A DNA stretch of 64,000 nucleotides from positions 1,054,001 to 1,118,000 of the forward strand of contig CP142730.1 of NCBI GenBank assembly GCA_036630325.1, given 5' to 3'. The position numbers and the translations under genes are program-made. This stretch comes from Vairimorpha necatrix (taxonomy: Eukaryota). This document shows, in pieces, positions 1-63,579 of the stretch. Numbering within the stretch: position 1 is the stretch's first letter; each line of letters opens with the position of its first letter. The notes beneath the pieces are model-generated. The model was not told where the DNA came from, did not search any database, and saw only the letters and a program-made list of their open reading frames with translations.

Positions 1-637
1 AGTAAAAAGAGTAATACCGATAAAAAAATCGTGTATAAAATGATATAAATTGCTTTGCAAACATTTTTGCATTCAGAAGAAACAATTCATATAAACCCGT
101 ACTAATCTTATTAAATAAAAGTTTTAACTTAAAATCTTGGTTTAAAAATTTAATTAAAGTCGTTTTATTTTAGGTAAAGAATTTTAACTATCGAAAGTGG
201 TCAATATTTCTTTTCCTCTACTTTCTCCTCCTTTTTTTGCTCTTCATTTTTGGGGTTCAAAAAAAATCGTAGCGCCTCAAATGCGTGGGCTGATAGTTAT
301 CTTTAGCCATTTGCTTGCATACTTTTTAGCAAATATTTATTGTGGTATTTCTCAGTGGGACATTCTCCGTACAAAGAAAACTCTCTACTATATTCGTTAT
401 AGTTTTATAATTTTGTTTAATAAGATTTTTATTGTAATTAATACAGTCCATTTCATTTTTATAGACACCTTGTTTCATAATTATAGACACCTTGTTCCAT
501 TTTTATAGACACCTTGTTTCATTTTTATAGAACCCTCATTTTATTATTATTATAGACACCTTGTTTCATTTTTATAGAACCCTCATTTCATTATTATAGA
601 CACCTTGTTTCATTTTTATAGACACCTTGTTATAAAA

Positions 638-675
638 TGTAGGGTTTAGAACCCTTAATAAATAAATGGTTAACA
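638..675 (+). repeat. 5' LTR, 38 bp: TGTAGGGTTTAGAACCCTTAATAAATAAATGGTTAACA
   Basis: Direct repeat of 3674-3711; reverse complement occurs at 45184-45221 and 48221-48258. Confidence 0.95.
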
Positions 676-3488
676 TGGCGAACACAAGGATGAACAGGGA
701 AACAAGAGAGTCCCGTAGTCAAGAGGCTAGAACATTAGAGAAAGAGGCAATTAGGATAGATAAGAGACTAAAGTTAATATTGAAAGTTGAGAAAGTTGAG
801 TGGAAAGATGTTATGGATTTGGCATCTGCGAACTTGCAGGATTATATTTTTGAAAATTTTTGTGACGGAAGGAGCAGTTGGGAGGAAATTTATAAAGGCT
901 TACAAAAAGGAGCAGAATTTGAGAGAGAGTCAGAAGAAAGACAAGAAATGATTAAAGAGATTATGGATAAAGTGTTGAAAGAGTTTAGGGAAGAAAGAAA
1001 AGAAAATCTTAGGATGTATAGGAAAAGAAGAGAAATCAGAGAAACTACAAAATGTTTTATATGTAAGAAAGAAGGGCATTACGCTAGAGAATGTCATGAA
1101 AGTGTAGCTGGTAGGGAAAAATATAAAATTAAAAAGGAACAAGTTTTACAGAAAGAACCAATTATCAACAATGAAGGGAAAAGATGTAAAACAGTAAATA
1201 AGTTAGAAAATTTAATTAAAAAGTATCCGGAAGTTTTTAAAGAATCAGAAGAAAAGATAAAATATCTCACAGGAGAGAAGTGTCCAATAAATACTAAGCA
1301 AGGTGAAAAGGTTGTGAAAAGAGGGCAGAATGTGCCATACTACCTTAGGGTGAAATTTGAGGAGTACTTGAATAAGTTGAAAAATAGAGGGGTTATAAGA
1401 CGTTCCAAAAGTGAGTGGAGGAGTCCAATAAGAGCACTTGAAAAACCAAATGGGGACGTAAGATTGGTAAGCAATTTGATGGCGTTAAACGATTTGGTTG
1501 ACAAGGACCAGTACTCACTACCGTTAATTAAGGATATTATGAGAGCCACACAGGGGTCAAAAGTATTTACGGTTATCGACTTAAAAGAAGGGTTTTATCA
1601 TATTGAGATTGAGGAGCACCATAAGCACAAAACAGCATTTGAAGTGAATGGTCGAGTATACGAATGGAATAGTATGGTTATGGGGTTTAAGAATTCGCCT
1701 CATATAATGCAGAGAGTAATGAACAGAGTTTTAGATGAATTCAGAGGTAAAGGCGTGGAAGTATATATGGATGATATAGTTATTCATGGTAAAGACGTAA
1801 GAGTGCATGACGAGTTACTAGAGAGGGTAATTAAAAAGTTTAAAGAGTGTGGGTTGAGAATAAACCAAACAAAGATACAATACAAAAAAGATGAGGTGAT
1901 GTTGCTGGGAGTAACAATTAATGGGGAGGTCATGGGACCGAATGAGATTAAAAAGCAGGAGACATTGGAATATAGAAAACCTGAGAATGTTAGAGAGTTA
2001 AGAAGATTTTTAGGACTAACTGGTTGGTTTAGAGACTTTATTCCCAACTATGCGTATAGAACAGTAAGGCTTACTGAGGCTTTAAAGAAAGATGTTAAGT
2101 GGAATTGGACGGAGGATATGGAAAGAGCTTTTGAGGATATGAAGCAAGGCTTGAGAGATATGAAAAAGTTGAAGATTCCGGACGGAAAAAAGCTATTTAG
2201 AGTAAGAACTGATGCGTGTGATACGGGGATCGGAGCAATTCTATTACAAGAAAATAAAGAGGGTGAGTGGATTCCGATACAATGGGCATCGAAAATGTTG
2301 ACTCCTACCGAGCGAAGATATACGATAAGTGAGAAGGAGATGTTGGCGGTGTTTTTTGGAATAAAGAAGTTTGAAAGTGATTTGAGAGGAAGGAAATTTC
2401 ATTTGATGACGGATCATAAAGCATTAGCAGAGATCAGAAATAAGCCATACTTCAATAATAACAGAATAAACAGATGGGTAGAACAGATACAAGAGTTTGA
2501 CTTTACAATAGAGTATGTGAAAGGGGAGTTGATGACAGATGCAGATGCGTTAAGTAGGCAGTATGATCAGGTAGAAGTTTCGGATGAACAAAAAGAAAAG
2601 GACAACAAGAGAAAAGAAGTGATCGAAAAACAAATTTTGGGAAAAAAGCAGAAACATATTAAAGAAAAGGACGGTAAACAGTATTGGGAATTTTCCACAG
2701 GTGAGGTGAAAGAGATATTGAGCCTAGATAGTAGAGAACATGAAATAACAAGAGTACATGAGGAGTTAAACCATAGAGGTGTCAAAGGCACTTATTATAA
2801 CATTAAACAAAGATGGTATTGGCCTGGTATGAAAGATCATATTAATAAGGTAATTAAGAATTGTGAAATATGTGGGATTAACAATAGGAAAAACACAGGA
2901 GGATGTGATTTCGTAGTAACTAGAAAGAAATTGGAGAAAGTGGCGTTGGATTTAATGGACATAGGTGGAGAGAATAGGTATGTGTTACTGGGTATTGATT
3001 ACTTTACTAGAAGGTTGTGGGGTTCGAATTTGAGATGTAAAGAGAGTAGTGAAGTTATAGAGGTATTACAAAAGTGGATAAGGGAAGATGGATTTCCAGA
3101 GGAATATGTGACAGACAACGGAAAAGAGTTTGTAAGTAATAGATTTAAAGAATGGTGTAGTATTAATGATATTAAACATAGGAAAGTGGGCTTAGAAGCT
3201 CATAGGAGTAATGGTAGAATCGAGAGATGCATCAGAACTATAAGAGAGACATTGATAAAGCAAAATGATGGGAATATTTCTGAAAAGATAGAAAGAGCAA
3301 TCAAAGGATATAATAATACACTACATACAGCAATAAAATGTACGCCGATGGAAGCGTGGAGAGATCAAACTGCTGAAGTTATAATTGAAAATGATGAAAA
3401 TGGAAAATATGCTGGTCGGTTCAAGAGAAGACACAGAGAGACATTTACAGTAGGCCAAGAGGTAAGAATCGCTAGGAGAGAAAATTAA
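666..3488 (+). CDS. Gag(short)-CCHC-RT-RNaseH-integrase polyprotein, C-terminally truncated by a nonsense codon
   Basis: CFICKKEGHYAREC knuckle; RT motifs IDLKEGFYHI, MVMGFKNSP and YMDD; RNase H RTDACDTGIGA and EKEMLAV; integrase HHCC and D,D35E. A TTA>TAA change at 3486-3488 and a 1-bp deletion near 3590 relative to copy 2. Confidence 0.93.
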   Translation: MVNMANTRMNRETRESRSQEARTLEKEAIRIDKRLKLILKVEKVEWKDVMDLASANLQDYIFENFCDGRSSWEEIYKGLQKGAEFERESEERQEMIKEIMDKVLKEFREERKENLRMYRKRREIRETTKCFICKKEGHYARECHESVAGREKYKIKKEQVLQKEPIINNEGKRCKTVNKLENLIKKYPEVFKESEEKIKYLTGEKCPINTKQGEKVVKRGQNVPYYLRVKFEEYLNKLKNRGVIRRSKSEWRSPIRALEKPNGDVRLVSNLMALNDLVDKDQYSLPLIKDIMRATQGSKVFTVIDLKEGFYHIEIEEHHKHKTAFEVNGRVYEWNSMVMGFKNSPHIMQRVMNRVLDEFRGKGVEVYMDDIVIHGKDVRVHDELLERVIKKFKECGLRINQTKIQYKKDEVMLLGVTINGEVMGPNEIKKQETLEYRKPENVRELRRFLGLTGWFRDFIPNYAYRTVRLTEALKKDVKWNWTEDMERAFEDMKQGLRDMKKLKIPDGKKLFRVRTDACDTGIGAILLQENKEGEWIPIQWASKMLTPTERRYTISEKEMLAVFFGIKKFESDLRGRKFHLMTDHKALAEIRNKPYFNNNRINRWVEQIQEFDFTIEYVKGELMTDADALSRQYDQVEVSDEQKEKDNKRKEVIEKQILGKKQKHIKEKDGKQYWEFSTGEVKEILSLDSREHEITRVHEELNHRGVKGTYYNIKQRWYWPGMKDHINKVIKNCEICGINNRKNTGGCDFVVTRKKLEKVALDLMDIGGENRYVLLGIDYFTRRLWGSNLRCKESSEVIEVLQKWIREDGFPEEYVTDNGKEFVSNRFKEWCSINDIKHRKVGLEAHRSNGRIERCIRTIRETLIKQNDGNISEKIERAIKGYNNTLHTAIKCTPMEAWRDQTAEVIIENDENGKYAGRFKRRHRETFTVGQEVRIARREN

Positions 3489-3673
3489 GGTACACGTGCG
3501 AAAACAGACAAGGGAAGATTCACGGGTCGCGGAAGGATCGTAGCTATAAGTGAAAATGATTCATATATTGTGAGACTACTGGATGGTAAATTGTTAAAAA
3601 GAGGCATTATGATTTGAAAGAGATAAGGAAGAGTTGTTTAGAAGATGGAGAGACTACCCGTCTGGAGTGGGGA

Positions 3674-3711
3674 TGCAGGGTTTAGAACCCTTAATAAATA
3701 AATGGTTAACA
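3674..3711 (+). repeat. 3' LTR, 38 bp
   Basis: TGCAGGGTTTAGAACCCTTAATAAATAAATGGTTAACA, one substitution relative to the 5' LTR. Confidence 0.95.
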
Positions 3712-3856
3712 TAAAATTTATTTTTATTTTTTTCATAATTTATTTATATAGTTGAATCGTAAAGAAGAGATAACGATATAGATATAAACATCAATATTTA
3801 CATGGCAAACTATGAAAACATCTTAGAAGTTTTTAATTAAAATTTTTAATATTAAT

Positions 3857-30366: not shown

Positions 30367-30419
30367 ACCAAATAAATTAACTAATATAAATACTAATATA
30401 AATAAATTTTATAGTAATT

Positions 30420-30553: not shown

Positions 30554-30609
30554 ACGCTCGACAATTTCAAAATATGTTTCAAAATATTTTTCATTTTTTT
30601 TTGGCCCTA

Positions 30610-32640: not shown

Positions 32641-32877
32641 AATTAAAAATTTAATAGTTTATTAAATTTATACTATTTTATTTTTTACTACATTTTATTT
32701 TTTTCTATTAAAATTTAATTTTTTATACTATTTTATTTCTTATATTAAAACTATTTTATTTTATTATTACGACTTATTTTTTTTATAAATTTTTTTGCAT
32801 TTGATTTTTTTTCGTTTTTTTGCTTTCTCCCATATATTACATCGTAATATATAATTCTTTTCTAAATTTGACCCCTA

Positions 32878-33483
32878 ATGCAAGAGAATGACAGACATAC
32901 TAATTCATATTTACATGACATCCTCACATTCTTAAAATCAACTTCTGGCTCAGTCACTTTCACTGACTTATACAATAAACTAAAAATCGACATACACAGC
33001 AATCTTCGTCTCTTAAATGCTCTCCAATCTAATGAGAAAATCCGGATACAAAACAATCTTATTGAATATTTGTACACTTACAATATTAAAAATAAAGAAG
33101 ATTTAGTCGAAATATTCAAAAACAAGAAAGAAGGAATAGAACTAGTAAAACTAAAAGATAATCCTGTAGACATCAGTGGATTCTTAGAAGACTTCTTGAT
33201 TCTTAAAGATAATGATGGAAGTGAAGTCGTGTTTTATAATGAACTACATATTGACAAACTGGACGAGGAATTAATAAACTTATGGAGAGCAGTAAAGATA
33301 CCAGGATATCAAGATATGCTTAGTGAACTTAATTGTGCGGGATTGAAGAGCGACAAGAATGAAGTGGTAAAGAGGAAAATAATAAATAAAAAAGCGAAGA
33401 GTAAAAAATATAGAAGGAATATAAAGATAACTAATACACATGTAAAAGGATTAGATCTGAGTGGGATGGATGATCATCCATAA
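32878..33483 (+). CDS. TFA2: Transcription factor IIE beta subunit
   Basis: Winged-helix-sized protein with YNIKNKEDL, LW..VKIP and a basic tail ending KITNTH; ACCCC upstream of the ATG. Confidence 0.8.
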   Translation: MQENDRHTNSYLHDILTFLKSTSGSVTFTDLYNKLKIDIHSNLRLLNALQSNEKIRIQNNLIEYLYTYNIKNKEDLVEIFKNKKEGIELVKLKDNPVDISGFLEDFLILKDNDGSEVVFYNELHIDKLDEELINLWRAVKIPGYQDMLSELNCAGLKSDKNEVVKRKIINKKAKSKKYRRNIKITNTHVKGLDLSGMDDHP

Positions 33484-38769: not shown

Positions 38770-39711
38770 TTATACTCGGATTTCATTTAATTCAATTTCC
38801 TCGTGAACTTTTTTAGGCTTGTTTTTTGAAACCCTTTTACAATACTTATCGACTCTTAAGTGTCTTCCTCTTAATGATCCGCATGCACTATTTATCTTCC
38901 AGTAAGCTATAGAAACTACAACAATAATTAAAAACGCATTAATTCCCATTAAAATATAAAAATTGTCATGGATAAATGTACTTAAAGCTTCGCCAATTTC
39001 GTAGGTGCTTTCATGATTTATCACAGTATTATTGTCTTCAATTGGCATATCTTCATAACATACTGCCTTTGATATTTGTCTTCTGTTTTCCTTTAAAACG
39101 TTAACAATATTTTCTTTCCCTTCTAATCCATAACAATTCTTGTTATGAGATATGAGTGTATTGCACATTCTATAGAGGATTCCAGGAATTTCTCCTATTC
39201 CCTTGAATACATAACATGTGTTTTTATATATAATGTCTTTAATCGCATTTTCCACCGACGAAGAAGCCTCTAGTACATCTTTAAAACATATTCCCAACGT
39301 ATTATAAAATCTTATTGTAATATCTACGATTTCATTAATAAAAATTTGCACAGAAAAATCAAATTTATCTAAAATAAAAGGGTCCCAAGCCTCAATTTTA
39401 AATTTTTGCTTAATTACAATCTCAAATACATTCTTCAATTCGTTTTTTACCTCAACAAAACTATTATCTGTATCATTGCTTTGAGCCATTCGTTTAAATA
39501 TAATATGTTCCGTTATACTTTTCCACACTATTTCAGCAAAATCCTGGATAGTCATCGGAGGTTGGCCTGTTATATTCGCAATTCCGTCATATGTACTGCA
39601 TAATTTATAATGATTGATATCATAAGAATCAATACTCATATTATTTTCAGTTGTTCTTATTATTGATATTAGTATTAAGATCAGATTAAAAGAATAAAAT
39701 AATAAACTCAT
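38770..39711 (-). CDS. Six-cysteine type I membrane protein family member (313 aa)
   Basis: Signal peptide, W..I..H.IF motif, YN.L..CFKD, NTCY, RMC, NCY, AVC, TM segment and basic tail. Confidence 0.88.
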   Translation of the reverse strand: MSLLFYSFNLILILISIIRTTENNMSIDSYDINHYKLCSTYDGIANITGQPPMTIQDFAEIVWKSITEHIIFKRMAQSNDTDNSFVEVKNELKNVFEIVIKQKFKIEAWDPFILDKFDFSVQIFINEIVDITIRFYNTLGICFKDVLEASSSVENAIKDIIYKNTCYVFKGIGEIPGILYRMCNTLISHNKNCYGLEGKENIVNVLKENRRQISKAVCYEDMPIEDNNTVINHESTYEIGEALSTFIHDNFYILMGINAFLIIVVVSIAYWKINSACGSLRGRHLRVDKYCKRVSKNKPKKVHEEIELNEIRV

Positions 39712-43783: not shown

Positions 43784-44758
43784 TTAATATTTAATCGAAT
43801 TTTCTTTTGATCCTTCAAACCAATTAATAAAATTATCAGCAGCTTTTTTTGCAGCCTTCAGTATCTTTGGAAGAATATTATAAGCGTGGATTAACAGAAA
43901 TGGCGTAACAACCCAGGAAGCCAATGTTTGATATAGATTCAATAACATAAAAATTAACGCGATGGTATTATTGTAGAGGCCCTGTGAAAGATCAAATTCT
44001 CTATATGTAAAAAAACCATTAACCCCGAAATTTATAACCGTTTCAATTGGGCCGAGTTTAAGCATTTGTCCCACAGCGCCCATACCAAAATCTATAATTT
44101 TTTTCCAAAGAGGTTTTTTAGGAGATTCTTTTATAACATTAGATTTATAAAAAACACATTTTTCTGCATTCTCCGCAAGCTCTTTGCTAAAATCTGCATT
44201 TTTATAGCTAGATAAATCATATTCCAGAGACACCAATTCTTCTTTATCGTTCAACTTCAATTTAATCTCATTTAAAATAAAATTTCTGATTTTCAGTTCT
44301 TTTGGAATTGAATCACTACCGGGGTTATCAAAAATATATAAAGAAATTTCATATGATTCAATTGTGAAATCTGCCATTTTTTCAACAAAAGATTTTTCAG
44401 ATTCAGTAAGATAATCGAATTTTACAGAATCTGGATCGATCAGATTTTTTTTTAGCAAAATGTAATCGTTAAAGGCGCGCTTCATTTTTTGTTGTTTTTC
44501 TTCGAAAGTACTTTCAGAGGTATTTTTTGCTAATAATTCTATTGTTTTATCATTTTCTACTATAGCTTCCCATACGACTTTTATGAATTCTTGCAAATCA
44601 GACATTTTTATAAAATTAAGTTTTCCGTTTTCAATTAATTCGTCGAATCGCCCGTTAATATTAAAATTGGATTTTAATATATCTACTTTGCTGCTGCTTG
44701 TTCTAACTAAATGTAGCATTAGATGCAACAATTGAAATAAACGGAGTGAGGATCTCAT
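43784..44758 (-). CDS. Divergent, Cys-poor member of the surface protein family (324 aa)
   Basis: Signal peptide; LQEFIKVVWEAI and FVEKMADFTIESY align with the family core; hydrophobic C-terminus with FTYREFD. Confidence 0.85.
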   Translation of the reverse strand: MRSSLRLFQLLHLMLHLVRTSSSKVDILKSNFNINGRFDELIENGKLNFIKMSDLQEFIKVVWEAIVENDKTIELLAKNTSESTFEEKQQKMKRAFNDYILLKKNLIDPDSVKFDYLTESEKSFVEKMADFTIESYEISLYIFDNPGSDSIPKELKIRNFILNEIKLKLNDKEELVSLEYDLSSYKNADFSKELAENAEKCVFYKSNVIKESPKKPLWKKIIDFGMGAVGQMLKLGPIETVINFGVNGFFTYREFDLSQGLYNNTIALIFMLLNLYQTLASWVVTPFLLIHAYNILPKILKAAKKAADNFINWFEGSKENSIKY

Positions 44759-45183
44759 TAAGGGGAAGAAAGAAAAAATTATCTAAATAAAAATTAATAA
44801 ATTTTGAAGTAGGAATTTAATATTTTTATAATGTTTATTAAAACTTCCAGAATCATATGATATTTGTTATTATTTGATTTTTTACTAATTCTTGTGCGTT
44901 TTATATTGAAGCCGCTAGGAATCAATTAAAATTACATCTTGTCGAATCTTTATATAACAATTAGAATTTATTAACTTGATTTAGAAATAATCAATTGTAT
45001 ACTTGGCTAATATTAGTAAACACTACTATAAACAAGTAAAATAATTATTGATGATCTATCAACATAAATAAAATGTTCAAATTTATGACATAAGGAAGTC
45101 AATTTTAGTGATAAATTGATTTGTTTTTAACCCATAAAAAAGAACATGTTTAAATTGAACAAAATTTTATTTTTTTTATATAT

Positions 45184-48100
45184 TGTTAACCATTTATTTA
45201 TTAAGGGTTCTAAACCCTACATCCCCCCTCCAGACGGGTAGTCTCTCCATCTTCTAAACAACTCTTCCTTATCTCTTTCAAATCATAATGCCTCTTTTTA
45301 ACAATTTTACCATCCAGTAGTCTCACAATATATGAATCATTTTCACTTATAGCTACGATCCTTCCGCGACCCGTGAATCTTCCCTTGTCTGTTTTCGCAC
45401 GTGTACCTAAATTTTCTCTCCTAGCGATTCTTACCTCTTGGCCTACTGTAAATGTCTCTCTGTGTCTTCTCTTGAACCGACCAGCATATTTTCCATTTTC
45501 ATCATTTTCAATTATAACTTCAGCAGTTTGATCTCTCCACGCTTCCATCGGCGTACATTTTATTGCTGTATGTAGTGTATTATTATATCCTTTGATTGCT
45601 CTTTCTATCTTTCCAGAAATATTCCCATCATTTTGCTTTATCAATGTCTCTCTTATAGTTCTGATGCATCTCTCGATTCTACCATTACTCCTATGAGCTT
45701 CTAAGCCCACTTTCCTATGTTTAATATCATTAATACTACACCATTCTTTAAATCTATTACTTACAAACTCTTTTCCGTTGTCTGTCACATATTCCTCTGG
45801 AAATCCATCTTCCCTTATCCACTTTTGTAATACCTCTATAACTTCACTACTCTCTTTACATCTCAAATTCGAACCCCACAACCTTCTAGTAAAGTAATCA
45901 ATACCCAGTAACACATACCTATTCTCTCCACCTATGTCCATTAAATCCAACGCCACTTTCTCCAATTTCTTTCTAGTTACTACGAAATCACATCCTCCTG
46001 TGTTTTTCCTATTGTTAATCCCACATATTTCACAATTCTTAATTACCTTATTAATATGATCTTTCATACCAGGCCAATACCATCTTTGTTTAATGTTATA
46101 ATAAGTGCCTTTGACACCTCTATGGTTTAACTCCTCATGTACTCTTGTTATTTCATGTTCTCTACTATCTAGGCTCAATATCTCTTTCACCTCACCTGTG
46201 GAAAATTCCCAATACTGTTTACCGTCCTTTTCTTTAATATGTTTCTGCTTTTTTCCCAATATTTGTTTTTCGATCACTTCTTTTCTCTTGTTGTCCTTTT
46301 CTTTTTGTTCATCCGAAACTTCTACCTGATCATACTGCCTACTTAACGCATCTGCATCTGTCATCAACTCCCCTTTCACATACTCTATTGTAAAGTCAAA
46401 CTCTTGTATCTGTTCTACCCATCTGTTTATTCTGTTATTATTGAAGTATGGCTTATTTCTGATCTCTGCTAATGCTTTATGATCCGTCATCAAATGAAAT
46501 TTCCTTCCTCTCAAATCACTTTCAAACTTCTTTATTCCAAAAAACACCGCCAACATCTCCTTCTCACTTATCGTATATCTTCGCTCGGTAGGAGTCAACA
46601 TTTTCGATGCCCATTGTATCGGAATCCACTCACCCTCTTTATTTTCTTGTAATAGAATTGCTCCGATCCCCGTATCACACGCATCAGTTCTTACTCTAAA
46701 TAGCTTTTTTCCGTCCGGAATCTTCAACTTTTTCATATCTCTCAAGCCTTGCTTCATATCCTCAAAAGCTCTTTCCATATCCTCCGTCCAATTCCACTTA
46801 ACATCTTTCTTTAAAGCCTCAGTAAGCCTTACTGTTCTATACGCATAGTTGGGAATAAAGTCTCTAAACCAACCAGTTAGTTCTAAAAATCTTCTTAACT
46901 CTCTAACATTCTCAGGTTTTCCATATTCCAATGTCTCCTGCTTTTTAATCTCATTCGGTCCCATGACCTCCCCATTAATTGTTACTCCCAGCAACATCAC
47001 CTCATCTTTTTTGTATTGTATCTTTGTTTGGTTTATTCTCAACCCACACTCTTTAAACTTTTTAATTACCCTCTCTAGTAACTCGTCATGCACTCTTACG
47101 TCTTTACCATGAATAACTATATCATCCATATATACTTCCCCGCCTTTACCTCTGAATTCATCTAAAACTCTGTTCATTACTCTCTGCATTATATGAGGCG
47201 AATTCTTAAACCCCATAACCATACTATTCCATTCGTATACTCGACCATTCACTTCAAATGCTGTTTTGTGCTTATGGTGCTCCTCAATCTCAATATGATA
47301 AAACCCTTCTTTTAAGTCGATAACCGTAAATACTTTTGACCCCTGTGTGGCTCTCATAATATCCTTAATTAACGGTAGTGAGTACGGGTCCTTGTCAACC
47401 AAATCGTTTAACGCCATCAAATTGCTTACCAATCTTACGTCCCCATTTGGGTTTTCAAGTGCTCTTATTGGACTCCTCCACTCACTTTTGGAACGTCTTA
47501 TAACCCCTCTATTTTCCAACTTATTCAAGTACTCCTCAAATTTCACCCTAAGGTAGTATGGCACATTCTGCCCTCTTTTCACAACCTTTTCACCTTGCTT
47601 AGTATTTATTGGACACTTCTCTCCTGTGAGATATTTTATCTTTTCTTCTGATTCTTTAAAAACTTCCGGATACTTTTCAATTAAATTTTCTAACTTATTT
47701 ACTGTTTTACATCTTTTCCCTTCATTGTTGATAATTGGTTCTTTCTGTAAAACTTGTTCCTTTTTAATTTTATATTTTTCCCTACCAGCTACACTTTCAT
47801 GACATTCTCTAGCGTAATGCCCTTCTTTCTTACATATAAAACATTTTGTAGTTTCTCTGATTTTTCTTCTTTTCCTATACATCCTAAGATTTTCTTTTCT
47901 TTCTTCCCTAAACTCTTTCAACACTTTATCCATAATCTCTTTAATCATTTCTTGTCTTTCTTCTGACTCTCTCTCAAATTCTGCTCCTTTTTGTAAGCCT
48001 TTATAAATTTCCTCCCAACTGCTCCTTCCGTCACAAAAATTTTCAAAAATATAATCCTGCAAGTTCGCAGATGCCAAATCCATAACATCTTTCCACTCAA

Positions 48101-48258
48101 CTTTCTCAACTTTCAATATTAACTTTAGTCTCTTATCTATCCTAATTGACTCTTTCTCTAATGTTCTAGCCTCTTGACTACGGGACTCTCTTGTTTCCCT
48201 GTTCATCCTTGTGTTCGCCATGTTAACCATTTATTTATTAAGGGTTCTAAACCCTACA
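45184..48258 (-). mobile_element. Miniature Ty3/gypsy LTR retrotransposon copy 2 (identical 38-bp LTRs, TSD TATAT)
   Basis: LTRs at 45184-45221 and 48221-48258. TATAT at 45179-45183 and 48259-48263. PPT GGAGGGGGGA. Confidence 0.96.
45210..48230 (-). CDS. Uninterrupted 1006-aa Gag-CCHC-RT-RNaseH-IN polyprotein with no recognisable protease
   Basis: ATG lies inside the 5' LTR and TAG inside the 3' LTR. All RT, RNase H and integrase catalytic motifs are present. Confidence 0.95.
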   Translation of the reverse strand: MVNMANTRMNRETRESRSQEARTLEKESIRIDKRLKLILKVEKVEWKDVMDLASANLQDYIFENFCDGRSSWEEIYKGLQKGAEFERESEERQEMIKEIMDKVLKEFREERKENLRMYRKRRKIRETTKCFICKKEGHYARECHESVAGREKYKIKKEQVLQKEPIINNEGKRCKTVNKLENLIEKYPEVFKESEEKIKYLTGEKCPINTKQGEKVVKRGQNVPYYLRVKFEEYLNKLENRGVIRRSKSEWRSPIRALENPNGDVRLVSNLMALNDLVDKDPYSLPLIKDIMRATQGSKVFTVIDLKEGFYHIEIEEHHKHKTAFEVNGRVYEWNSMVMGFKNSPHIMQRVMNRVLDEFRGKGGEVYMDDIVIHGKDVRVHDELLERVIKKFKECGLRINQTKIQYKKDEVMLLGVTINGEVMGPNEIKKQETLEYGKPENVRELRRFLELTGWFRDFIPNYAYRTVRLTEALKKDVKWNWTEDMERAFEDMKQGLRDMKKLKIPDGKKLFRVRTDACDTGIGAILLQENKEGEWIPIQWASKMLTPTERRYTISEKEMLAVFFGIKKFESDLRGRKFHLMTDHKALAEIRNKPYFNNNRINRWVEQIQEFDFTIEYVKGELMTDADALSRQYDQVEVSDEQKEKDNKRKEVIEKQILGKKQKHIKEKDGKQYWEFSTGEVKEILSLDSREHEITRVHEELNHRGVKGTYYNIKQRWYWPGMKDHINKVIKNCEICGINNRKNTGGCDFVVTRKKLEKVALDLMDIGGENRYVLLGIDYFTRRLWGSNLRCKESSEVIEVLQKWIREDGFPEEYVTDNGKEFVSNRFKEWCSINDIKHRKVGLEAHRSNGRIERCIRTIRETLIKQNDGNISGKIERAIKGYNNTLHTAIKCTPMEAWRDQTAEVIIENDENGKYAGRFKRRHRETFTVGQEVRIARRENLGTRAKTDKGRFTGRGRIVAISENDSYIVRLLDGKIVKKRHYDLKEIRKSCLEDGETTRLEGGCRV

Positions 48259-49537
48259 TATATTAATAATTTTGTCCTACATGTTAGTCTAAAAAATTTT
48301 TAATTGTTTGCTTTTTTCCTAACTTATGTAGAATTCAAGGTGAACTATATTAATATTTTATTCATTTGTATGAATTAAATTGAATATTTTACCACGTTCA
48401 AGAAAAAAACAAAATAAAGAATTAATAAAAACAATATTCTTAACAGATAAAAAAATATCTTCAAAGGTTAAGTAAGTTTCCCGTTTCTGTAAGATTTTTA
48501 TAACGGCAAATTACTTTTCTAGATATCGTCTACCATTAGCACTGTCATTTGAAAGTGAGCTTATCCTTTTTAAGCATTCAAGATAAAAAAAAAATTTTCA
48601 TCAAAAATTGATAAATAATCTATAACTTATATGATCAAATACAAAGATCTTTGTATTTTTTTCTAAGGTAATTTGTATCTATACAGTTTCAGGCCAAAAT
48701 TTATGGTGATATTTTTTCTTTGAGCAAATTTCATAACTATACATCAAAACTTCATATATTTAAAAACAAAGATAGTCATGGTAAGACAACACGTTACAAG
48801 TTTTATTCTTTAGTTGCTCTACAAAAAGAAGGGTTTCGTTAAAAAAATAGTGCATGCTTCAAAAACCTACAGAACAGTCAGTTTAAATATTGTTATTAGT
48901 TGTTTATAAATTTTTTTTTTTGCACTTTCGTATTTTCATCACATTAAAAAAATTTAGTTTGGCCGTTTGAGAATAATCTATTAATGATGGATTTGACATG
49001 TCGATGAAATACTTAATATTATAAGCAAGACAATAGTGATTTAATGTCTATTAGAATCTTAGAACATTGGTGCAAGACTAAAACGTCCTCGATGAGGTTG
49101 TTTTGTTTCTGTAAAATTTCCTCACATGTTTTTTAAACAATCATCAAGCCCATATTAATTTAACCAATAAACTTGACAAACAAACTAGTTTTAAAAATAC
49201 ATTTCAAATTATGTAAAAAAAGATTACAAAGTCCGGAGTGAGCTATAAAAGCGAAGCACGAAAAATTAAAATGACTAAGTAAAAATATAACTAATTATAG
49301 TCGTTCATTGCGAAAAATTTTACAGTTGTGTGGCAGAGAAAAATCTATAAATTACTAATTTAAATGCAATCATTATTTCTGTATCGGCATATTTTTGATT
49401 TTTTTACTTAATATAATTAGTGTAAAAATTTTATAATTCTAAAGATTTTGAATTTAAAAAGCCAAAATAGACCCAAAATATTCTAATTTATGAAAGAAAA
49501 ACGTATACTTATATATTATTAGAAGTAATAATCTTTA

Positions 49538-50455
49538 TTATTCTTCTTTATATAATATCTTTTTCTTTTTTGTTACATTAAAAAGGTTACTACTTTTTTC
49601 ACATAAGTAAAGAAACCCCTTTGCTATTAGTGCTACTATTAGAATATAGAAAGTAAAAACATTAAAATATTTATAAGACGACCAAATTCCACCAAAAAAA
49701 TTTTCATATGTGCTATTATTAGGATCGTACTCTCTATAACTAGAAAACATACCAAAAAAGAAGCTAAACAGAAAGGCCCCAAATCTATAACTATACAGCT
49801 TGTTGAGTATACTTTTATTACAAGATTGCAATTTTGAAATGGTTGTTTTTGACTTGTTTTTTATTTCAGTTATCTCTGCAATCCTTTCAAGATCTTCTTT
49901 TTTATATGCTGGAATTATAAACCTCAAGCCAATAAGTGCTCCGTTTACGTCTTTTAGTAAGCTAATGTTATTAAAAATGCACTTTTTTATTTCTCTTCTT
50001 TTTTCTTCTGAATTGGTTGTTTCATTTGGCCATTTATAATGAAACATATTATATGCATTTACTGTAAACCTTGACAAATCATCAACGATTGTTATGTCGG
50101 GCTCTGGTAGTCTTTGGAATAACTTAGAGTTATTATCAGACATGTTTAACTTCAGCATAACTAATTCACTGTGCGCGATGTGTAACATCTTCAGTCTCAC
50201 CTCTAAGCTGTTTTTAGACTTACTCTTTTCTAATGCCTCTTTAAAACCATCACTTCCTGCCATATTTCCATATACAGTTTCAATGAAATCTTTAAGATCC
50301 TTCAACTGAGGGAATTTTTTTTCTAAATTGTCCTTCAATCTAACACATTTTTTCTTATAAGAACATGATTCTACTTCATCTGTTCTTATGTTGCTTCCTA
50401 AAACTAATCGCATCATACAAAGCACCAGTGGAAAAAAATTAAGCGACAATTTCAT
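49538..50455 (-). CDS. Divergent member of the surface protein family (305 aa), closest to 43784-44758
   Basis: Signal peptide; LKDFIETVY, DDLSRFTVNAYNM and FSSYREYD; two C-terminal hydrophobic segments. Confidence 0.85.
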   Translation of the reverse strand: MKLSLNFFPLVLCMMRLVLGSNIRTDEVESCSYKKKCVRLKDNLEKKFPQLKDLKDFIETVYGNMAGSDGFKEALEKSKSKNSLEVRLKMLHIAHSELVMLKLNMSDNNSKLFQRLPEPDITIVDDLSRFTVNAYNMFHYKWPNETTNSEEKRREIKKCIFNNISLLKDVNGALIGLRFIIPAYKKEDLERIAEITEIKNKSKTTISKLQSCNKSILNKLYSYRFGAFLFSFFFGMFSSYREYDPNNSTYENFFGGIWSSYKYFNVFTFYILIVALIAKGFLYLCEKSSNLFNVTKKKKILYKEE

Positions 50456-51212: not shown

Positions 51213-51444
51213 ATTTAATAGAATATAATTAGAGTATGCTTATTGTAGTTTATACTTCTAGTTAAACAAGGATAGGTTTCGCGTTAGCGTCTCCTGCTTG
51301 TAGGTAGCTTCCGGCTCCATAGTTCTTTCCACATCGGCTTCGTCTCCCCTCCTTCGGTAGTCCAGAGAAATGCTTTCTATCGTTTTTTTCCAGCGTAACT
51401 ATCTGGATGTACGCTTCTACCTTATTAGGATTCTCAAGTCTTGT
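51213..51444 (-). mobile_element. 5'-truncated insertion (~230 bp) of the RLE non-LTR element's 3' end
   Basis: Matches ~8915-9128. Flanked by a 14-bp direct repeat ATTAACTAATACTA (51199-51212) and ATTGACTAATACTA (51445-51458). Confidence 0.8.
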
Positions 51445-53450: not shown

Positions 53451-54368
53451 TAAGAAGCAAAATTTTTTTACTAAACTTATCACCAAAGACTGTCTTGCGT
53501 CTACTCTAAGTTATAATAAAGTATCGAATAATTTAGCGAAAATAGCTCTATGGGGTTGATTTCTTTTGACTATTAGAATCAACGACGAAAACTTGCGAAA
53601 TAACTCTCTATACAATATATAGCTTAAGGTAAAACAATCTTACAATAAGTCAACAAAAATTTAAAAATGTTATTAGGAGGGAACAATTAGTTGTGTATTT
53701 TAATTCGAACGCATTTGTTTGAATGTTAAAAAAAACCAAATGAATATCTTATAAGAGGTTACTGTTTTTCACCTACCGTGATAAAATAAAATTGAAATGG
53801 TACTCGATAAAGTAAAAAAACAAATGTAGGCATATTTTTCACAGATTCGTTAATACTGTACAAATAACTAGTTTCCTTCACAATATATATTTAATTAGTT
53901 TTTTGATAAAAAAATTTGAATCCACCTTTCAAATTTTTGTATTTCGGCTTTTGATTTATTTGCCATTTAATATCATAAATGACATGTATACGACATTTAT
54001 GACAAGCTATTAAATATTACAAAGGACAATAAATTTTAAATCGTTCATAAGTTTTTATTACATTTAATTCAAGAACAAAGGTTTTTACTGACAAAAGGTA
54101 ACATTTTATCTGAGACTATATAGTTTTATCTGGCTTTAGTCATAAAAGTTTAGAGCCGCATTAATGCTATAGTGAAAATATTTGTTATACATAATTTTAG
54201 GTTTTACGATAATATTGAGCACATATTTAATTTTTCTCAAAAATATGACTATTTTAAATATTTTGAAATAAGTATTTATAATGCAAAACAATATAATTTG
54301 GTTGATCAACAGTCAATTAGAAAAAAATTAATATAATTTCAATTAAATGTATGAATTTTAGACCCCAA

Positions 54369-55265
54369 ATGAGCTTGGTTTGTATATTAACTCAATTATT
54401 TATTTTCAAAACATATACAACAAAATCTTGTAAAAATATTTCTGATCCGATAGATTTGATTATTAAAAGTGGGAAAATTTGTGATGTTTTAAATACAAAA
54501 TTTAACGAAACCGGCCTGTCATTTGAAACTGTTCAAAGCTTTGGGGAAAGTATGTGGTACGCAGTAATAAATCATGAAATTTTCATTAATATGACAAAAA
54601 ATATTATCATGAAAGCTGATTTCTCGCAAAGACTAATAAATTTGAAAAACGCATACTTAGAAATGATTAGAGGAATATTTATAACAAGTACTTGGAATTC
54701 TACAATAATAGATTTGATTCCAGCGAATGATCAACACTTCATTGATGAACTTATTTACGGTACATTAGAGTATTACAATATGTTACTTATGTGTTATAAA
54801 GATAGAATTTTAAGTTCAAACTGCATTAAAGACGCAATCGAAGAAATTATTAGACAAAATACATGTTACATTAAAAATGGAACAGAGAAATTTCCTAGTC
54901 TCGTTTTTAAAATTTGTAAAGGCCTTATCCCTCATTTTAAGGAGTGTTATAAAGATAAAGGCATGGAATACATTTATAATGAAATAAAATACAATCAAGA
55001 TCAATTATTAAGAGCTGAGTGTATAAACAATTCTAATTATGATGTTAGTAATATTAAAAACATCACTGACATTTTCACGTACGATTTTTTAAACGTAAAT
55101 TATGATAATAAAGTCGCCGAAAATGATACTGGTACAGTACCATTGATATCAAAATGGGGGTTTCTCATATTGATGTGTTTAGGCTTATTATTATTAGGAT
55201 GGGTGTATTACAAAAAGAGAATTAGAAAAAAAATACAATATACAACAGTTTACAATATTTATTAA
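54369..55265 (+). CDS. Six-cysteine type I membrane protein family member
   Basis: ATG 54369 follows ACCCC; WYAVINHEIF, YNMLLMCYKD, NTCY, KIC, ECY, AEC, TM, YYKK. Confidence 0.9.
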   Translation: MSLVCILTQLFIFKTYTTKSCKNISDPIDLIIKSGKICDVLNTKFNETGLSFETVQSFGESMWYAVINHEIFINMTKNIIMKADFSQRLINLKNAYLEMIRGIFITSTWNSTIIDLIPANDQHFIDELIYGTLEYYNMLLMCYKDRILSSNCIKDAIEEIIRQNTCYIKNGTEKFPSLVFKICKGLIPHFKECYKDKGMEYIYNEIKYNQDQLLRAECINNSNYDVSNIKNITDIFTYDFLNVNYDNKVAENDTGTVPLISKWGFLILMCLGLLLLGWVYYKKRIRKKIQYTTVYNIY

Positions 55266-57495: not shown

Positions 57496-58428
57496 ATGAA
57501 GTTAAAATATTTTTCTATTCAGATTCTAATATACACATTTGGTATAATAAAAGCCGGAAACAACGTAACTGAAAATTTACATGATATGATGAATAGTAAT
57601 TTAAATAAAAGTCAGATTTGTAATTCTTTACACAATAACGTTGGTGATAATGGCCTGTCATCAAATGCAGTTCTTGATTTTGGCTTTTTATTTTGGGATG
57701 CGATAACAAACCATGATATTTTCAAAAACATGACACAGAACATAACGTCACCAGAAAGTTTCAATTTTTTACACTTAATATTGAAAGTCTATTATATTGA
57801 GAAAATTAAGGAAGTATTTAGATTAAAAAAATGGAACCCAGAATTGCTGGATGGAATTTCATCGACTGTGAGAAACTTTACTTATGAGTTTGTAGACGGA
57901 ACACTAGATGCTTATAACATGCTACGTTTATGTTTTAAAGATACAATTAATGACTCTAATTCTACCAAAGAATCTATAGAGAGAATTCTTAAGGAAAACA
58001 CATGCTTTATACCCAAAGGGATAAGTGAGACCATTCCATCTTTTGTTATTAAAATGTGTGCAGGTATCCGTCCATATTACAACGAGTGTTATGGAAATCG
58101 AAGCACTCTTCTTTTTTTGGAGGATGTGAGAAAAAATCATGACCAAATATATAGAGCTGAATGTAGCAATGATATTTATGATTTTAAAAATATGAATACA
58201 AAAGATTTAAGACTTGAAGATAACGTTAAATTTTCATATTTAAATATGTTAGAAGCCAAAAATAATGGATATATTTTTAATTTGAGTCCTAATTTATGTG
58301 TCGGTATTATAATTATTTGTTTAATGTTTACCTTTTGTGGATACTTGTATTACAAAAAATGTATTAAAAAAAGATCTGATCAATATAAAGCTTATGATTC
58401 GATGGAAAAGGAAAGAGTTGAAGTTTAA
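57496..58428 (+). CDS. Six-cysteine type I membrane protein family member (310 aa)
   Basis: WDAITNHDIF, YNMLRLCFKD, NTCF, KMC, ECY, AEC, TM, YYKK; many NxS/T sequons. Confidence 0.92.
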   Translation: MKLKYFSIQILIYTFGIIKAGNNVTENLHDMMNSNLNKSQICNSLHNNVGDNGLSSNAVLDFGFLFWDAITNHDIFKNMTQNITSPESFNFLHLILKVYYIEKIKEVFRLKKWNPELLDGISSTVRNFTYEFVDGTLDAYNMLRLCFKDTINDSNSTKESIERILKENTCFIPKGISETIPSFVIKMCAGIRPYYNECYGNRSTLLFLEDVRKNHDQIYRAECSNDIYDFKNMNTKDLRLEDNVKFSYLNMLEAKNNGYIFNLSPNLCVGIIIICLMFTFCGYLYYKKCIKKRSDQYKAYDSMEKERVEV

Positions 58429-60320: not shown

Positions 60321-61253
60321 ATGAAGTTATTTAAATGTTCTTTCCTTTCAAGTTACATTATTTTTTGTATAACAAATACGGATGATAATGTTTCCAAGCT
60401 TTTACACTCTATGGTTAATAGTAATCTAACTAGGAATCAAACTTGTGATTCTTTAAATAATAACGTTGGTGGTAGTGGTCAATCAGTTGAGACTATTAAA
60501 GCTTTTAGTAAACTGTTCTGGGAAACAATAATAAATCATGATATTTTTAAAAGATTGACAAAAAATAATACCGCAACTTCTTTTTTTGTTGATATACGTG
60601 CATTATTGCAAGACAGATATTTAGAATTAGTTAAACAAGCATTTAAATTAACGAAATGGGATCCCGACTTATTATTATATTTTCCATCGTCTGAAAAAAT
60701 TTTCACATATGATCTAGTGGGCGGCACATTGGATTATTATAACATGTTACGTTTATGTTATAAAGATACAATTAATAATTCGAACTCGACTCAAGAAGCT
60801 ATAAAACAGATATTTATTGAAAACACATGTTTTATACCAAAAGGCTTAAGTGATATCATTCCTTCAACTGTTTTTAAGATGTGTAAAGGTCTACGTCCGT
60901 ATTACGACGAGTGTTATGGAAATAGAAGTACACTCCTTTTCTTGGAGGATGTGAAAAAAAATCAAGAAAAATTATCAACTGCAGAGTGCATGACTAACTT
61001 ATATGATTTCAAAAATATAACTACTGCGATCAATAATACAACTGAAAATATAAGGTTTGAATATCTAAATATGTCAGAAGATCAAAGTACAAATTTTTAT
61101 GGTTGGTTTGGATCTATCTTTGGAGTTGGTATAATAATATTCTGTCTAGTATTTATTTTATCTGGATATTTATATTATAAAAAAAATAATGAAAAAAGAT
61201 CTGCAGCTTTTAAAACCTATAAATTAGTTGAAATGGAAAAAAATAAAGCTTAA
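60321..61253 (+). CDS. Six-cysteine type I membrane protein family member (310 aa)
   Basis: Close paralog of 57496-58428. Confidence 0.92.
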   Translation: MKLFKCSFLSSYIIFCITNTDDNVSKLLHSMVNSNLTRNQTCDSLNNNVGGSGQSVETIKAFSKLFWETIINHDIFKRLTKNNTATSFFVDIRALLQDRYLELVKQAFKLTKWDPDLLLYFPSSEKIFTYDLVGGTLDYYNMLRLCYKDTINNSNSTQEAIKQIFIENTCFIPKGLSDIIPSTVFKMCKGLRPYYDECYGNRSTLLFLEDVKKNQEKLSTAECMTNLYDFKNITTAINNTTENIRFEYLNMSEDQSTNFYGWFGSIFGVGIIIFCLVFILSGYLYYKKNNEKRSAAFKTYKLVEMEKNKA

Positions 61254-61778
61254 AAGGTTTTTTATATTTTAAAATTTTCTTTCCATTTAATGTGTTTTTT
61301 ATAAATATACAATGTACATATATATCATTTTTTTAGTATAATGCAAATTACAATAAAATTTAAGGCTCATTTTTTTAAGATATAAATCTCCTGTGATATC
61401 GTTAAGTGTTATATTGTGTTTCAAAAGTTTCGAATTTCATTAAAAATACTATAGTTACAAGCATAATTTTTAAAAATAGGAAGTTTATTAGTTTTGTTGC
61501 ATCTAAAATATTTCTAAAAGATTTATAATAGTTCTAATGCAATTGTAAATAAATATTTAAATACAAACGCTACATACTAATTATTCTTTTTACATTATAG
61601 ACTATAATTTAAATGAATTTGTATAATTTTGTTCATTTCCTCGTAAGAATAAATCCATAATTTCAGTTTTTTTTATATACAGTTCATATACTTATTTTCT
61701 TTTATATTTTACAAAAAAAAATTATTTAACAAATTATGACATCTATTCGTCAGATCACCTCAGTTAATAAAAATTTTG

Positions 61779-62486
61779 GGTACATGGCCGTTTGGAACCC
61801 GCTTTGGGAAAATGAACCCGCATTGAAATTTTAAAGGACCCCCCTTTAAAAAAATGGCAAAATTGGCAAAAACAATGTTTGTTGAGGCAGATGAGGTTTT
61901 TAGTGATGTAATGTATTTATACGTGGAATATAAAGAAAAGTTTATTTTGGAAACATTTGATGCTGAATCAGTGCGCCTTGCTCGTTTCTGTAACTAGTAG
62001 AATACTGCTTTTTCCTTGAGGTGATACAAGAAAATGTATAACCTGTTTCTATATGATCTCTAATCAATGGGTAGCATGTGATGTCACATTAGCTAAGCAA
62101 AGGGATGGAGCACAGTATTAAGAATCACTCCATAAATGCCGTAACCTCTAGCGATTCTGAGTCACAATATTATATAATTTAGTTGGTTTCGGCTCATTCC
62201 TATAAGAGATATTTGATCTTAACATAAACAAAGAAGAACACTATGAGTACCTTTTACAGTTTCACTAGGCTTTTCAAATTCCCAAAAATTAACGGATAAA
62301 TTGTCTTCTGTCATTATTAATAATAAATCATCAAGTCCTTTTTTTATAACTTTTTTTTATTTTTCCCTTTTTTTGAATTTTTCAAAGCGAGTTTATTTTC
62401 CCAAAGCGGGTTCATTTTCCCAAAGCGGGTTCATTTTCCCAATGCGGGTTCATTTTCCCAAAGCGGGTTCCAAACGGTCATGTACC
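61779..62486 (+). mobile_element. Non-autonomous TIR element (708 bp, 8-bp TSD AAATTTTG), Mutator-like or Merlin-like
   Basis: 47-bp TIR GGTACATG(G/A)CCGTTTGGAACCCGCTTTGGGAAAATGAACCCGCATTG. 19-bp unit AAAGCGGGTTCATTTTCCC x~5 at the right end. TSD at 61771-61778 and 62487-62494. Confidence 0.9.
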
Positions 62487-63579
62487 AAATTTTGTAATTT
62501 TTCATATTAATTACTCTTAAATGTAATTCACATATAGTTCTAAAAAATGATTTAAAATTTTTGAAGTATACGGGTACATTACTAGACTAGCTTTAATTAT
62601 AGTTGCATGTTTGTTAATATTTTACTATACTACAAATTTTATTTAAATACATCATTCGGCTTCTTGAATTGTCGTCGTGTATAAACATTCATTCAGCATA
62701 ATTAGTACGCAACATCTATTTTTATTGATATGTTAGCGCGATTTTATGCTTATTGAATATAAATATATAATCACGCATTTTTATATTAGGATTTATATAT
62801 GTTCGATTTATAAATGAGCATATTTATATAGAATTACAATATCAATTATTTAAATTAATATTTTTATGATAATGGTATTTCGGTGTACAATCTTTTCAAT
62901 GCTTTTATTTTTTCTGCTTCCGTTTAATTACACCAACTATTATTGTAATATATTATATATTGTGATAAAAATGCTGACTTCGACAATAAAACATTTCCTT
63001 GTGACAAAATATATTTAATACATATAATCAAAGAATAAATTAATTATTTATATAAACCAAAGGAGCTTTGCGGAATGAACATAAAAATTATACCATGTGT
63101 TTGCTCTAAAAAATAAAGATTTGTTCAGCTAATTTTTATTCTCTGTACCCAATAAATTATGAATTAAAGTAAATACGTACTATAATATGAGATTTAAAAA
63201 CTTGTTCCAATTCAATTAAATAAAAAATATCAATTTGTTTTATTTTAAAATTCATCGAAATCATAAGCACAATTAAAAAAAAAAACAAAATGAAATTAGT
63301 AATTATTTGATTTTTTTCTTCATTATTACAATAAAAAAATTCCAGTCAGCGGTGACGTGTGTTGACAATTTACAAAAATCAATTTATCACAAAAAAATGT
63401 TCTTATTTTAAGATATATCATTAAATTTGCCCAAAATAATGGTTTGATAAAAAATTATTTTTTTCTAAACACTTTACGAGAGTTGTTTGGATTAAAAATT
63501 AACATAAAAAAGTTTTACAACAATGTAAAAAATGTTTTCTGATAAATTATATATAATAATAAAATTTTAGTACCCATAT

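Follow-up and report, generated by a model that had tools for sequence, protein, structure and literature searches.

A Ty3/gypsy-type retrotransposon of Vairimorpha necatrix with 38-bp long terminal repeats, a single open reading frame and no recognizable protease

The stretch of the microsporidian Vairimorpha necatrix genome analyzed here spans 64,000 nucleotides of contig CP142730.1 (assembly GCA_036630325.1, positions 1,054,001 to 1,118,000) and is called the window below, with positions counted from its first base. It has a G+C content of 27% and carries two closely similar copies of a long terminal repeat (LTR) retrotransposon, copy 1 and copy 2, lying 41 kb apart in opposite orientations (Table 1). 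The two copies differ at 15 positions, by 14 substitutions and one 1-bp indel. A single open reading frame (ORF) fills 3021 of the 3075 bp of copy 2, and its Gag-like part amounts to only about 110 aa. With such short repeats, one gene spanning them and no protease, the element is among the most stripped-down of the Ty3/gypsy kind. Our analysis suggests, with a probability of about 0.8, that it is a member of a microsporidian Ty3/gypsy-type clade cut to near the minimum, with a length of 3075 bp, 38-bp LTRs, one ORF and no protease.

Two insertions of one unit

Both copies end in the TG..CA direct repeats of LTR retrotransposons. The sense strand of the copy 2 LTR reads TGTAGGGTTTAGAACCCTTAATAAATAAATGGTTAACA; on the plus strand of the window the same 38-mer, TGTTAACCATTTATTTATTAAGGGTTCTAAACCCTACA (TGTTAACC...CCCTACA), stands at 45184-45221 and 48221-48258, and its reverse complement stands at both LTRs of copy 1. 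Allowing up to 3 mismatches, the 38-mer has 4 matches in the 64-kb window and 0 in each of 100 dinucleotide-preserving shuffles. The terminal motifs of Metaviridae LTRs are given as 5' TGTTRNR...YNYAACA 3' (PMC3601003), from which the ends found here, TGTAGGG...GTTAACA, depart by one mismatch in each end motif. The element as a whole has a G+C content of 36% and a purine-rich sense strand.

Each copy is flanked by its own perfect 5-bp target-site duplication (TSD), TAAAA around copy 1 and TATAT around copy 2. Beyond the TSDs the two insertion sites have nothing in common, and similarity stops at the LTR ends except for AT-rich chance matches. Both flanks of copy 1 also match a paralogous repeat unit on the minus strand at 15547-15787, in which the two TSD copies correspond to a single pentamer at 15694-15698. 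Because both flanks align to this unfilled site and both TSDs fall on its one pentamer, the insertion of copy 1 extends exactly from LTR to LTR. The unit integrated at least twice in exactly this form, each time with the 5-bp target duplication that is an integrase mark.

A prior reading made from the letters alone, the sequence-only reading, had described two copies of 3074 and 3075 bp with 38-bp TG..CA repeats and separate perfect 5-bp TSDs, and had classed them as an LTR retrotransposon. The coordinates and the shuffles bear out the former. The class assignment also stands, given the terminal repeats, the 5-bp TSDs, the TGG that follows the 5' LTR, the polypurine tract (PPT), and a reverse transcriptase (RT), RNase H and integrase in Ty3/gypsy order.

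The surroundings of copy 1 are themselves repetitive. A repeat unit of about 1.6 kb ends there in a tandem array of 22-bp repeats (consensus TTTCATTTTTATAGACACCTTG), and copy 1 was inserted at the inner edge of that array. This unit occupies 411-640 plus 3712-5158, its inverted sister lies at about 14272-15859, and inverted 22-bp arrays bound both sides. The paired inverted units of about 1.6 kb resemble a foldback-type element.

The encoded protein and its relatives

In copy 2 the ORF opens with an ATG at LTR position 29, immediately downstream of an in-frame TAA, and closes in the 3' LTR, where positions 10-12 form a TAG. The sequence-only reading had placed a 1006-codon ORF between these same points and had stated that the TGG primer-binding site and the PPT are both protein-coding; copy 2 confirms the ORF, and both tracts fall inside it. 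A second in-frame ATG is formed by the last A of the LTR and the TG of TGG.

The domain order of the Pol part by Pfam (RT, RNase H, integrase) is that of Ty3/gypsy elements (Metaviridae). By sequence, the best relatives of solved structure are the Ty3 Gag-Pol 7q5b (E 9.6e-62) and the Ty3 RT 4ol8, which cover the RT-RNase H portion. In an AlphaFold model built from a 27-sequence alignment, with a mean predicted local distance difference test score of 79.3, the predicted RT fold superposes in Foldseek on the RTs of caulimovirus, murine leukemia virus, foamy virus and Ty3. Together these matches assign the element to the Ty3/gypsy kind.

The region ahead of the RT is less easily assigned. The model places helices at residues 17-39, 46-52, 55-65 and 72-127, the last of 56 residues, followed by the zinc knuckle and a low-confidence linker at 148-176. 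The N-terminal 128 aa are thus predicted to be helical, are about half the size of a two-domain capsid, and match no Pfam Gag family; with E values up to 10, Pfam returned only zinc knuckles and chance domains of unknown function for the N-terminal region. Foldseek with the whole model returned RT/RNase H structures only and is uninformative on the N-terminus. Atlas leads to gag/protease clusters score at most 0.83, under the level the tool treats as meaningful. When residues 1-222 were compared exhaustively by phmmer, 61 matches resulted, 11 of them at E <=1e-10, mostly short fragments of relatives or multi-knuckle proteins.

Relatives are numerous. A search with the protein gave 143 matches, of which 120 were listed, and the counts of protein starts and motifs given here cover the best 46. 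Among the matches listed, the nearest named relatives come from Nosema granulosis (73% identity, a partial protein), V. necatrix (about 49%) and Enteropsectra breve (44%). For 16 of the best 46, a protein of 949-1039 aa comes with a longest contig of only 3035-3283 nt, which suggests elements that are almost wholly ORF; contig ends at repeats could mimic this pattern. DNA of relatives was examined in six AT-rich contigs, L001 to L006, from bacterial metagenome bins. These bins are labelled Clostridium sp., Turicibacter sp. and Erysipelotrichales, and 4 of the 6 contigs come from one bin. The retrotransposon contigs look like eukaryotic contamination of these bins, for which the elements serve as a marker.

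The ends of the relatives are built like those of the window element. In L001, which holds only the 3' part of an element with 66% protein identity, GGAGGAGGGGA is followed by TGTTGGGTTATTAGCCCCTATTAAATAAATGACTAACA, a 38-nt 3' LTR with the same base as the window LTR at 29 of 38 positions, and the ORF stops at LTR positions 12-14. L003 is a complete element of 3364 bp with 58-nt TG..CA repeats; its AACA/TGG junction creates a start codon, and its ORF stops at LTR positions 16-18. L002 is likewise complete, at 3530 bp; its two 67-nt repeats match each other at 100% identity and contain an LTR ATG in frame with CA/TGG. Its 3' LTR is preceded by GAGGGGGGA, the equivalent of the window PPT, as GGAGGAGGGGA is in L001, and in these relatives too the PPT is read as part of the ORF. 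In L006 a 5' end of about 47 nt, whose left boundary is our own reading, precedes TGGCAACACC. The window element, L002, L003 and L006 all have TGG immediately after the LTR, and in these three relatives CA/TGG makes an in-frame ATG. The terminal motifs are TGTTGGG...ACTAACA in L001 and TGTT...AACA in L002 and L003.

The proteins of further relatives carry what may be traces of the same arrangement. Nineteen of the best 46 matches begin with M-x(1-8)-[HYND]-M-[AG], and 6 have MA or MG at the very start; among the remaining 21 are partial or part-covering proteins, plus N-termini that fit neither pattern. The M-A/G pair would be the product of an A joined to TGG and then C or G, while H, Y, N and D have NAY codons, as expected for an LTR ending in ...NACA. 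Eight matches end in G-rich tails such as RLEEGMLGY, RLGGGC and GGDVVYI, which could be a PPT and the following TGT... in translation. These readings of starts and tails agree with the four loci of readable DNA.

Since L001 has a homologous LTR of 38 nt and the LTRs of L003 and L002 measure 58 and 67 nt, short LTRs are a trait of the clade and not the result of a recent deletion. Long LTRs, which would have pointed to such a deletion, were found in none of these three relatives. Judged by these loci, 38 bp is the normal LTR of the family. The architecture put forward in the sequence-only reading is common to the whole microsporidian clade and not specific to this element.

A point beyond that reading is the apparent lack of an own protease, to which Pfam, motif searches, structure prediction and the other reading frames all point. 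Pfam found no aspartic protease in the whole protein, nor in residues 1-267 even at E values up to 10. The AlphaFold model has no beta-rich domain between residues 128 and 225, with only helices and disordered linker from 17 to about 225, and the alternative sense-strand frames, at 42 and 55 aa, hold no hidden protease. A D[TS]G[AS] motif ahead of the RT is missing in 43 of the 46 best relatives. Among distant cousins, however, L002 and the protein P0041 have weak, below-cut-off gag-asp_proteas matches (E about 5e-4), and L002, L003 and the protein P0042 have DTG motifs at the expected place; these four protease-bearing cousins are without the CCHC knuckle. The RT of the CCHC-bearing clade begins about 120 residues earlier than theirs. 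Because the distant cousins keep a weak match or DTG motifs, the protease was lost in the CCHC-bearing clade of about 1000 aa that includes the window element.

Table 1. Positions in the window of the two element copies, their insertion marks and the features of copy 2
Feature	Position	Strand	Remarks
Copy 1, whole element	638..3711	+	3074 bp, defective
Copy 1 5' LTR	638..675	+	38 bp, 0 mismatches to the 38-mer
Copy 1 3' LTR	3674..3711	+	1 mismatch, at 3676; 37/38 identical
TSD TAAAA, copy 1 5' side	633..637	.	identical to 3712..3716
TSD TAAAA, copy 1 3' side	3712..3716	.	identical to 633..637
Paralogous unfilled target site TATAA	15694..15698	-	inverted sister of the repeat unit interrupted by copy 1
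Copy 2, whole element	45184..48258	-	3075 bp, reading frame intact
TSD TATAT, copy 2 5' side	48259..48263	.	identical to 45179..45183
Copy 2 5' LTR	48221..48258	-	38 bp, sense strand TGTAGGGTTTAGAACCCTTAATAAATAAATGGTTAACA
ACCCTT, microsporidian promoter motif of the CCC type	48240..48245	-	5' LTR positions 14-19; candidate promoter
ORF	45210..48230	-	1006 codons, 3021 nt with stop; Gag-like region, CCHC, RT, RNase H, integrase
Primer-binding-site-like TGGCGAACACAAGG	48207..48220	-	directly 3' of the 5' LTR; encodes (M)ANTR
Gag-like N-terminal helical region	47850..48182	-	aa 17-127, with one 56-residue helix; no Pfam family
CCHC zinc knuckle	47799..47846	-	aa 129-144, Pfam E 0.0034
RVT_1 reverse transcriptase	46977..47450	-	aa 261-418, Pfam E 1e-29
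RT_RNaseH	46398..46790	-	aa 481-611, Pfam E 2.9e-30
Integrase_H2C2 zinc-binding domain	46008..46163	-	aa 690-741, Pfam E 2.7e-14
rve integrase catalytic core	45714..45935	-	aa 766-839, Pfam E 3e-10
PPT GGAGGGGGGA	45222..45231	-	adjoins the 3' LTR; encodes part of LEGG
Copy 2 3' LTR	45184..45221	-	38 bp, 38/38 identical to the 5' LTR
AATAAATAAA, two overlapping AATAAA	45193..45202	-	3' LTR positions 20-29; putative poly(A) signals
TSD TATAT, copy 2 3' side	45179..45183	.	identical to 48259..48263

Candidate LTR signals and competing explanations

The 38-bp LTR holds candidate signals for expression that resemble those of microsporidian genes. In Nosema, CCC motifs within 20 bp of start codons are linked with expression, and ACCCTT is reported for N. 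apis (PMC11592040). In Encephalitozoon cuniculi, 5' untranslated regions are shorter than 7 nt, a CCC-like motif lies just before the start codon and AAUAAA is found near stop codons (PMC2803860). The window follows this pattern, as 9 of its 12 other ORFs have a CCC 0-5 nt upstream of the ATG. In the element, the ACCCTT is separated by 9 nt (LTR positions 20-28) from the LTR ATG at positions 29-31, and relatives have similar promoter-like motifs, TACCCTT in L002, AACCCTT in L003 and GCCCCT in L001. The sequence-only reading had likened the element to its host in compaction. More aptly, it makes use of the highly compact signals by which the host expresses its genes; between its genes the window has long stretches, and it is rich in repeats.

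As a 38-nt LTR packs a promoter motif, AATAAA signals and both a start and a stop codon, the repeated region R of the transcript is likely about 20 nt or less. Retroviral R regions are reported down to 16 nt (PMC6088434). A terminal redundancy of about 10-20 nt would thus lie at the known lower edge of R and not past that edge. Self-priming of the Tf1 type was considered and rejected, as the LTR and the 18 nt after the 5' LTR share no complementarity of 5 nt or more.

A replication cycle can be proposed in which the LTR bears all cis-acting signals in overlapping form. The integrase would recognize the ends TGT...AACA, and the host-type CCC/ACCCTT core promoter at LTR positions 14-19 would start transcription a few bases downstream, giving a U3 of about 17-27 nt. 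AATAAATAAA would direct formation of the 3' end near or just beyond the end of the 3' LTR, and the resulting terminal redundancy of about 10-20 nt (R, or R plus U5) would serve the first-strand transfer. The minus strand would be primed at the TGG-led site, which doubles as codons 4-8, and a very short strong-stop DNA would jump to the 3' copy; the PPT, also read as the codons for LEGG, would prime the plus strand. Translation could begin at the LTR ATG or at the ATG made by the LTR-end A and the TG of TGG, and the polyprotein would either work unprocessed or be cleaved by a protease acting in trans. We propose only tentatively, with the odds somewhat against it, that the clade completes its cycle with a 38-bp LTR in which all signals overlap and R does not exceed 20 nt, and that, lacking its own protease, it relies on a single Gag-RT-RNase H-integrase protein that stays uncleaved. 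If true, the minimum required of an autonomous LTR retroelement, in cis as well as in trans, would be lower than hitherto assumed.

Several observations weigh against the picture of a compact, mobile element as a whole. The limits of U3, R and U5, the transcription start site and the poly(A) site are all deduced from the letters of the element. The CCC ends 11 nt before the LTR ATG, as opposed to 0-5 nt for host genes in the window. Neither the window nor any of the six relative loci has a tRNA gene according to ARAGORN, and of the primer site only the TGG is established. In both complete relatives the 5-nt flanks are unmatched (tttat/ctaac for L002, aatac/gtttg for L003), which could reflect chimeric assembly or recombination. 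The 64 kb contain no solo LTRs or other gypsy remnants and only the two copies; in a tblastn search with 9 family proteins, all 18 matching segments fell inside copy 1 or copy 2. Without a protease, the autonomy of the element is uncertain. The state of the copies counts on the same side. The ORF of copy 1 is broken twice, by a premature stop at 3486-3488 and by the loss of 1 bp near 3587. Copy 2 carries K260N and G450E at residues that never vary among the 26 aligned relatives, and V364G at a residue that is V or I in 24 of the 26. Of the 14 substitutions separating the copies, 12 alter the protein. With copy 1 disabled, invariant residues changed in copy 2 and so many non-synonymous changes, both copies are decaying descendants of a very similar source, and no copy in the window is demonstrably functional. 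The recent insertion suggested for copy 2 in the sequence-only reading is accordingly weak, as identical 38-bp LTRs say little about age and the copy is decaying.

Much of this would also fit a non-autonomous or semi-autonomous element for which protease-bearing relatives in the same genome supply the protease, and perhaps particles, in trans. The missing protease and the loss of most of the canonical capsid favor such dependence, related lineages do exist in which a DTG motif or a weak match to Asp_protease is present (L002, L003, P0041, P0042), and among the matches listed single microsporidian species account for several divergent family members. However, protease-less CCHC frames of about 1000 aa stay open across many lineages at 44-73% identity, at least three named genera (Nosema, Vairimorpha and Enteropsectra) carry the protease-less form, and no protease-bearing relative was found in the window. 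Since long open frames persist across divergent lineages, the protease-less form has likely been under long-term selection, and we consider supply in trans unlikely, if the most serious of the alternatives. Less probable still is that the whole 38-bp repeat serves as R, with transcripts starting in the upstream flank or a strong-stop DNA spanning the full LTR, so that the LTR is not truly divided into U3, R and U5 and expression depends on the insertion site. The LTR is indeed too short for a conventional promoter, copy 2 has the same orientation as both neighboring genes, and transcriptional overrun is reported in microsporidia (PMC2803860). Yet a CCCTT about 6-20 nt before the first in-frame ATG is kept in the window element, L002 and L003, like a host promoter motif, and on the standard model a strong-stop DNA whose 3' end consists of flanking sequence would not allow extension once transferred.

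Two further explanations concern the repeats and the copies themselves. That LTRs normally exceed 100 bp, as in the gypsy elements of Culex with 119-444 bp (PMC3286476), could suggest that the 38-bp repeats are stumps of longer LTRs and the copies deletion derivatives. This has already been largely refuted and is very improbable, as the TSDs are flush with the 38-bp ends in two independent insertions, the relative of 66% identity has a homologous 38-nt LTR, and the others have 58 and 67 nt. Segmental duplication or an assembly artefact in place of transposition can be practically dismissed: large segmental repeats are present in the window, but the copies have unrelated flanks, stand in opposite orientations 41 kb apart, have a TSD each, and in the case of copy 1 can be compared with an unfilled paralogous site. 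A compact, protease-less member of a microsporidian Ty3/gypsy-type clade thus remains the best explanation of the element.

The surrounding window and known elements

Outside the element, the window has a housekeeping cluster at 23632-33483 with a SNF2-type helicase (23632-27546), CDC20/Fizzy (28100-29125), MCM5 (30574-32640) and TFIIE-beta (32878-33483). The MCM5 shares 69% identity with that of N. granulosis, 65% with N. bombycis and 62-64% with Encephalitozoon, as for a host of the Nosema/Vairimorpha group. The database copy has 676 aa as against 688 codons in the ORF, which probably means that translation starts at a later codon. Just downstream of CDC20, at 29688-29904, lies an A-rich low-complexity tract of irregular (A)nCAAGAC-like repeats. 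A direct segmental duplication of about 6 kb (5329-11305 and 17177-23137, 92-100% identical, spaced about 11.84 kb apart) carries in each duplicate an ORF of 349 or 350 aa (5540-6589, 17387-18439) that matches no Pfam family and has a CCC 5 nt upstream of its ATG.

Six other ORFs of 304-324 aa, again with no Pfam family, lie at 38770-39711, 43784-44758, 49538-50455, 54351-55265, 57496-58428 and 60321-61253, and in 5 of the 6 a CCC precedes the ATG by 2-4 nt. A direct repeat of 77% identity extends into the last two (57857-58156 and 60682-60981), so that at least these two are paralogues, and the six may be a lineage-specific gene family. A 74-nt sequence occurs three times at 92-100% identity, twice inside the segmental duplication (9002-9075, 20848-20921) and once elsewhere (51316-51389). 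The 60-nt arms of an inverted repeat (61766-61825 and 62440-62499), 90% complementary and 614 nt apart, could be the ends of a small DNA transposon.

LTRs are usually thought to need hundreds of bases for promoter, R and U5, and the protease is a standard retroelement gene. The present family appears to be spread through microsporidia with LTRs of 38-67 bp, a coding primer-binding site and PPT, and no protease. It may therefore offer a natural minimal system for asking how short R can be, whether a few-base host-type promoter can replace U3, and whether polyprotein cleavage is dispensable. By default, LTR finders accept only LTRs of at least about 100 bp, so that elements with 38-bp LTRs would escape them. 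Family proteins are annotated only as 'reverse transcriptase' or 'endonuclease' in the source names. As such finders would leave short-LTR elements masked or mis-named, the LTR content, solo-LTR counts and insertion dates obtained for microsporidia are probably biased. In the V. necatrix genome paper the words LTR and retrotransposon are never used, and repeats were masked before gene calling (PMC10759460).

With 38 bp, the LTR falls under the usual range of about 100 bp to several kb. No description of ultrashort LTRs, a coding primer-binding site and PPT, or protease loss in microsporidian elements was found in the open-access full texts searched. The novelty implied by the sequence-only reading thus met no prior description in those texts; an earlier record may exist. 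While Ty3/gypsy polyprotein elements of microsporidia are known, LTRs of 38-67 bp, a coding primer-binding site and PPT, and protease loss are apparently new.

The closest known systems are microsporidian. Microsporidia-specific Ty3/gypsy groups with a single polyprotein are described by Parisot et al. 2014 (PMC4202319) and in PMC13174016, and these groups and the Nbr elements of N. bombycis (Xu et al. 2006) are, like the window element, Ty3/gypsy elements of a microsporidian host with a single Gag-Pol polyprotein. In the text of Parisot et al. 2014 (PMC4202319) the word 'protease' occurs 0 times, and the passages compared give no LTR lengths. The N. bombycis elements are given, at second hand, the order Gag-protease-RT-RNase H-integrase (PMC2474625), whereas the window element is without the protease. 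The window element has a single ORF and its nearest named matches are microsporidian, so that it may belong to the Parisot groups.

Ty3 of Saccharomyces cerevisiae has the same order of RT, RNase H and integrase, a CCHC nucleocapsid knuckle and a 5-bp TSD. Its Gag-Pol RT match begins at residue 600, compared with 223 in the window element. Unlike the window element, Ty3 has a two-domain capsid, a protease, a frameshifted GAG3-POL3 and LTRs of some hundreds of bp. Tf1 and Tf2 of Schizosaccharomyces pombe have a single Gag-Pol ORF like the window element, and the source record of one relative from N. granulosis bears the name 'Transposon Tf2-9 polyprotein'. Tf1 differs in its protease, in its long LTRs and in priming reverse transcription with the 5' end of its own transcript.

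Terminal-repeat retrotransposons in miniature (TRIMs) share with the window element a small size, short terminal repeats, a primer-binding site and a PPT. They are non-coding and wholly dependent on other elements, with repeats of about 100-250 bp, whereas the window element encodes RT, RNase H and integrase. Membership in the TRIM class, or in that of large retrotransposon derivatives (LARDs), was accordingly rejected given the 1006-codon ORF with these domains. Retroviruses with a short R have long U3 and U5 regions, in LTRs of more than 1 kb. The mouse mammary tumor virus carries out first-strand transfer with an R of 16 nt (PMC6088434), and in the window element an R of about 20 nt or less would serve the same step.

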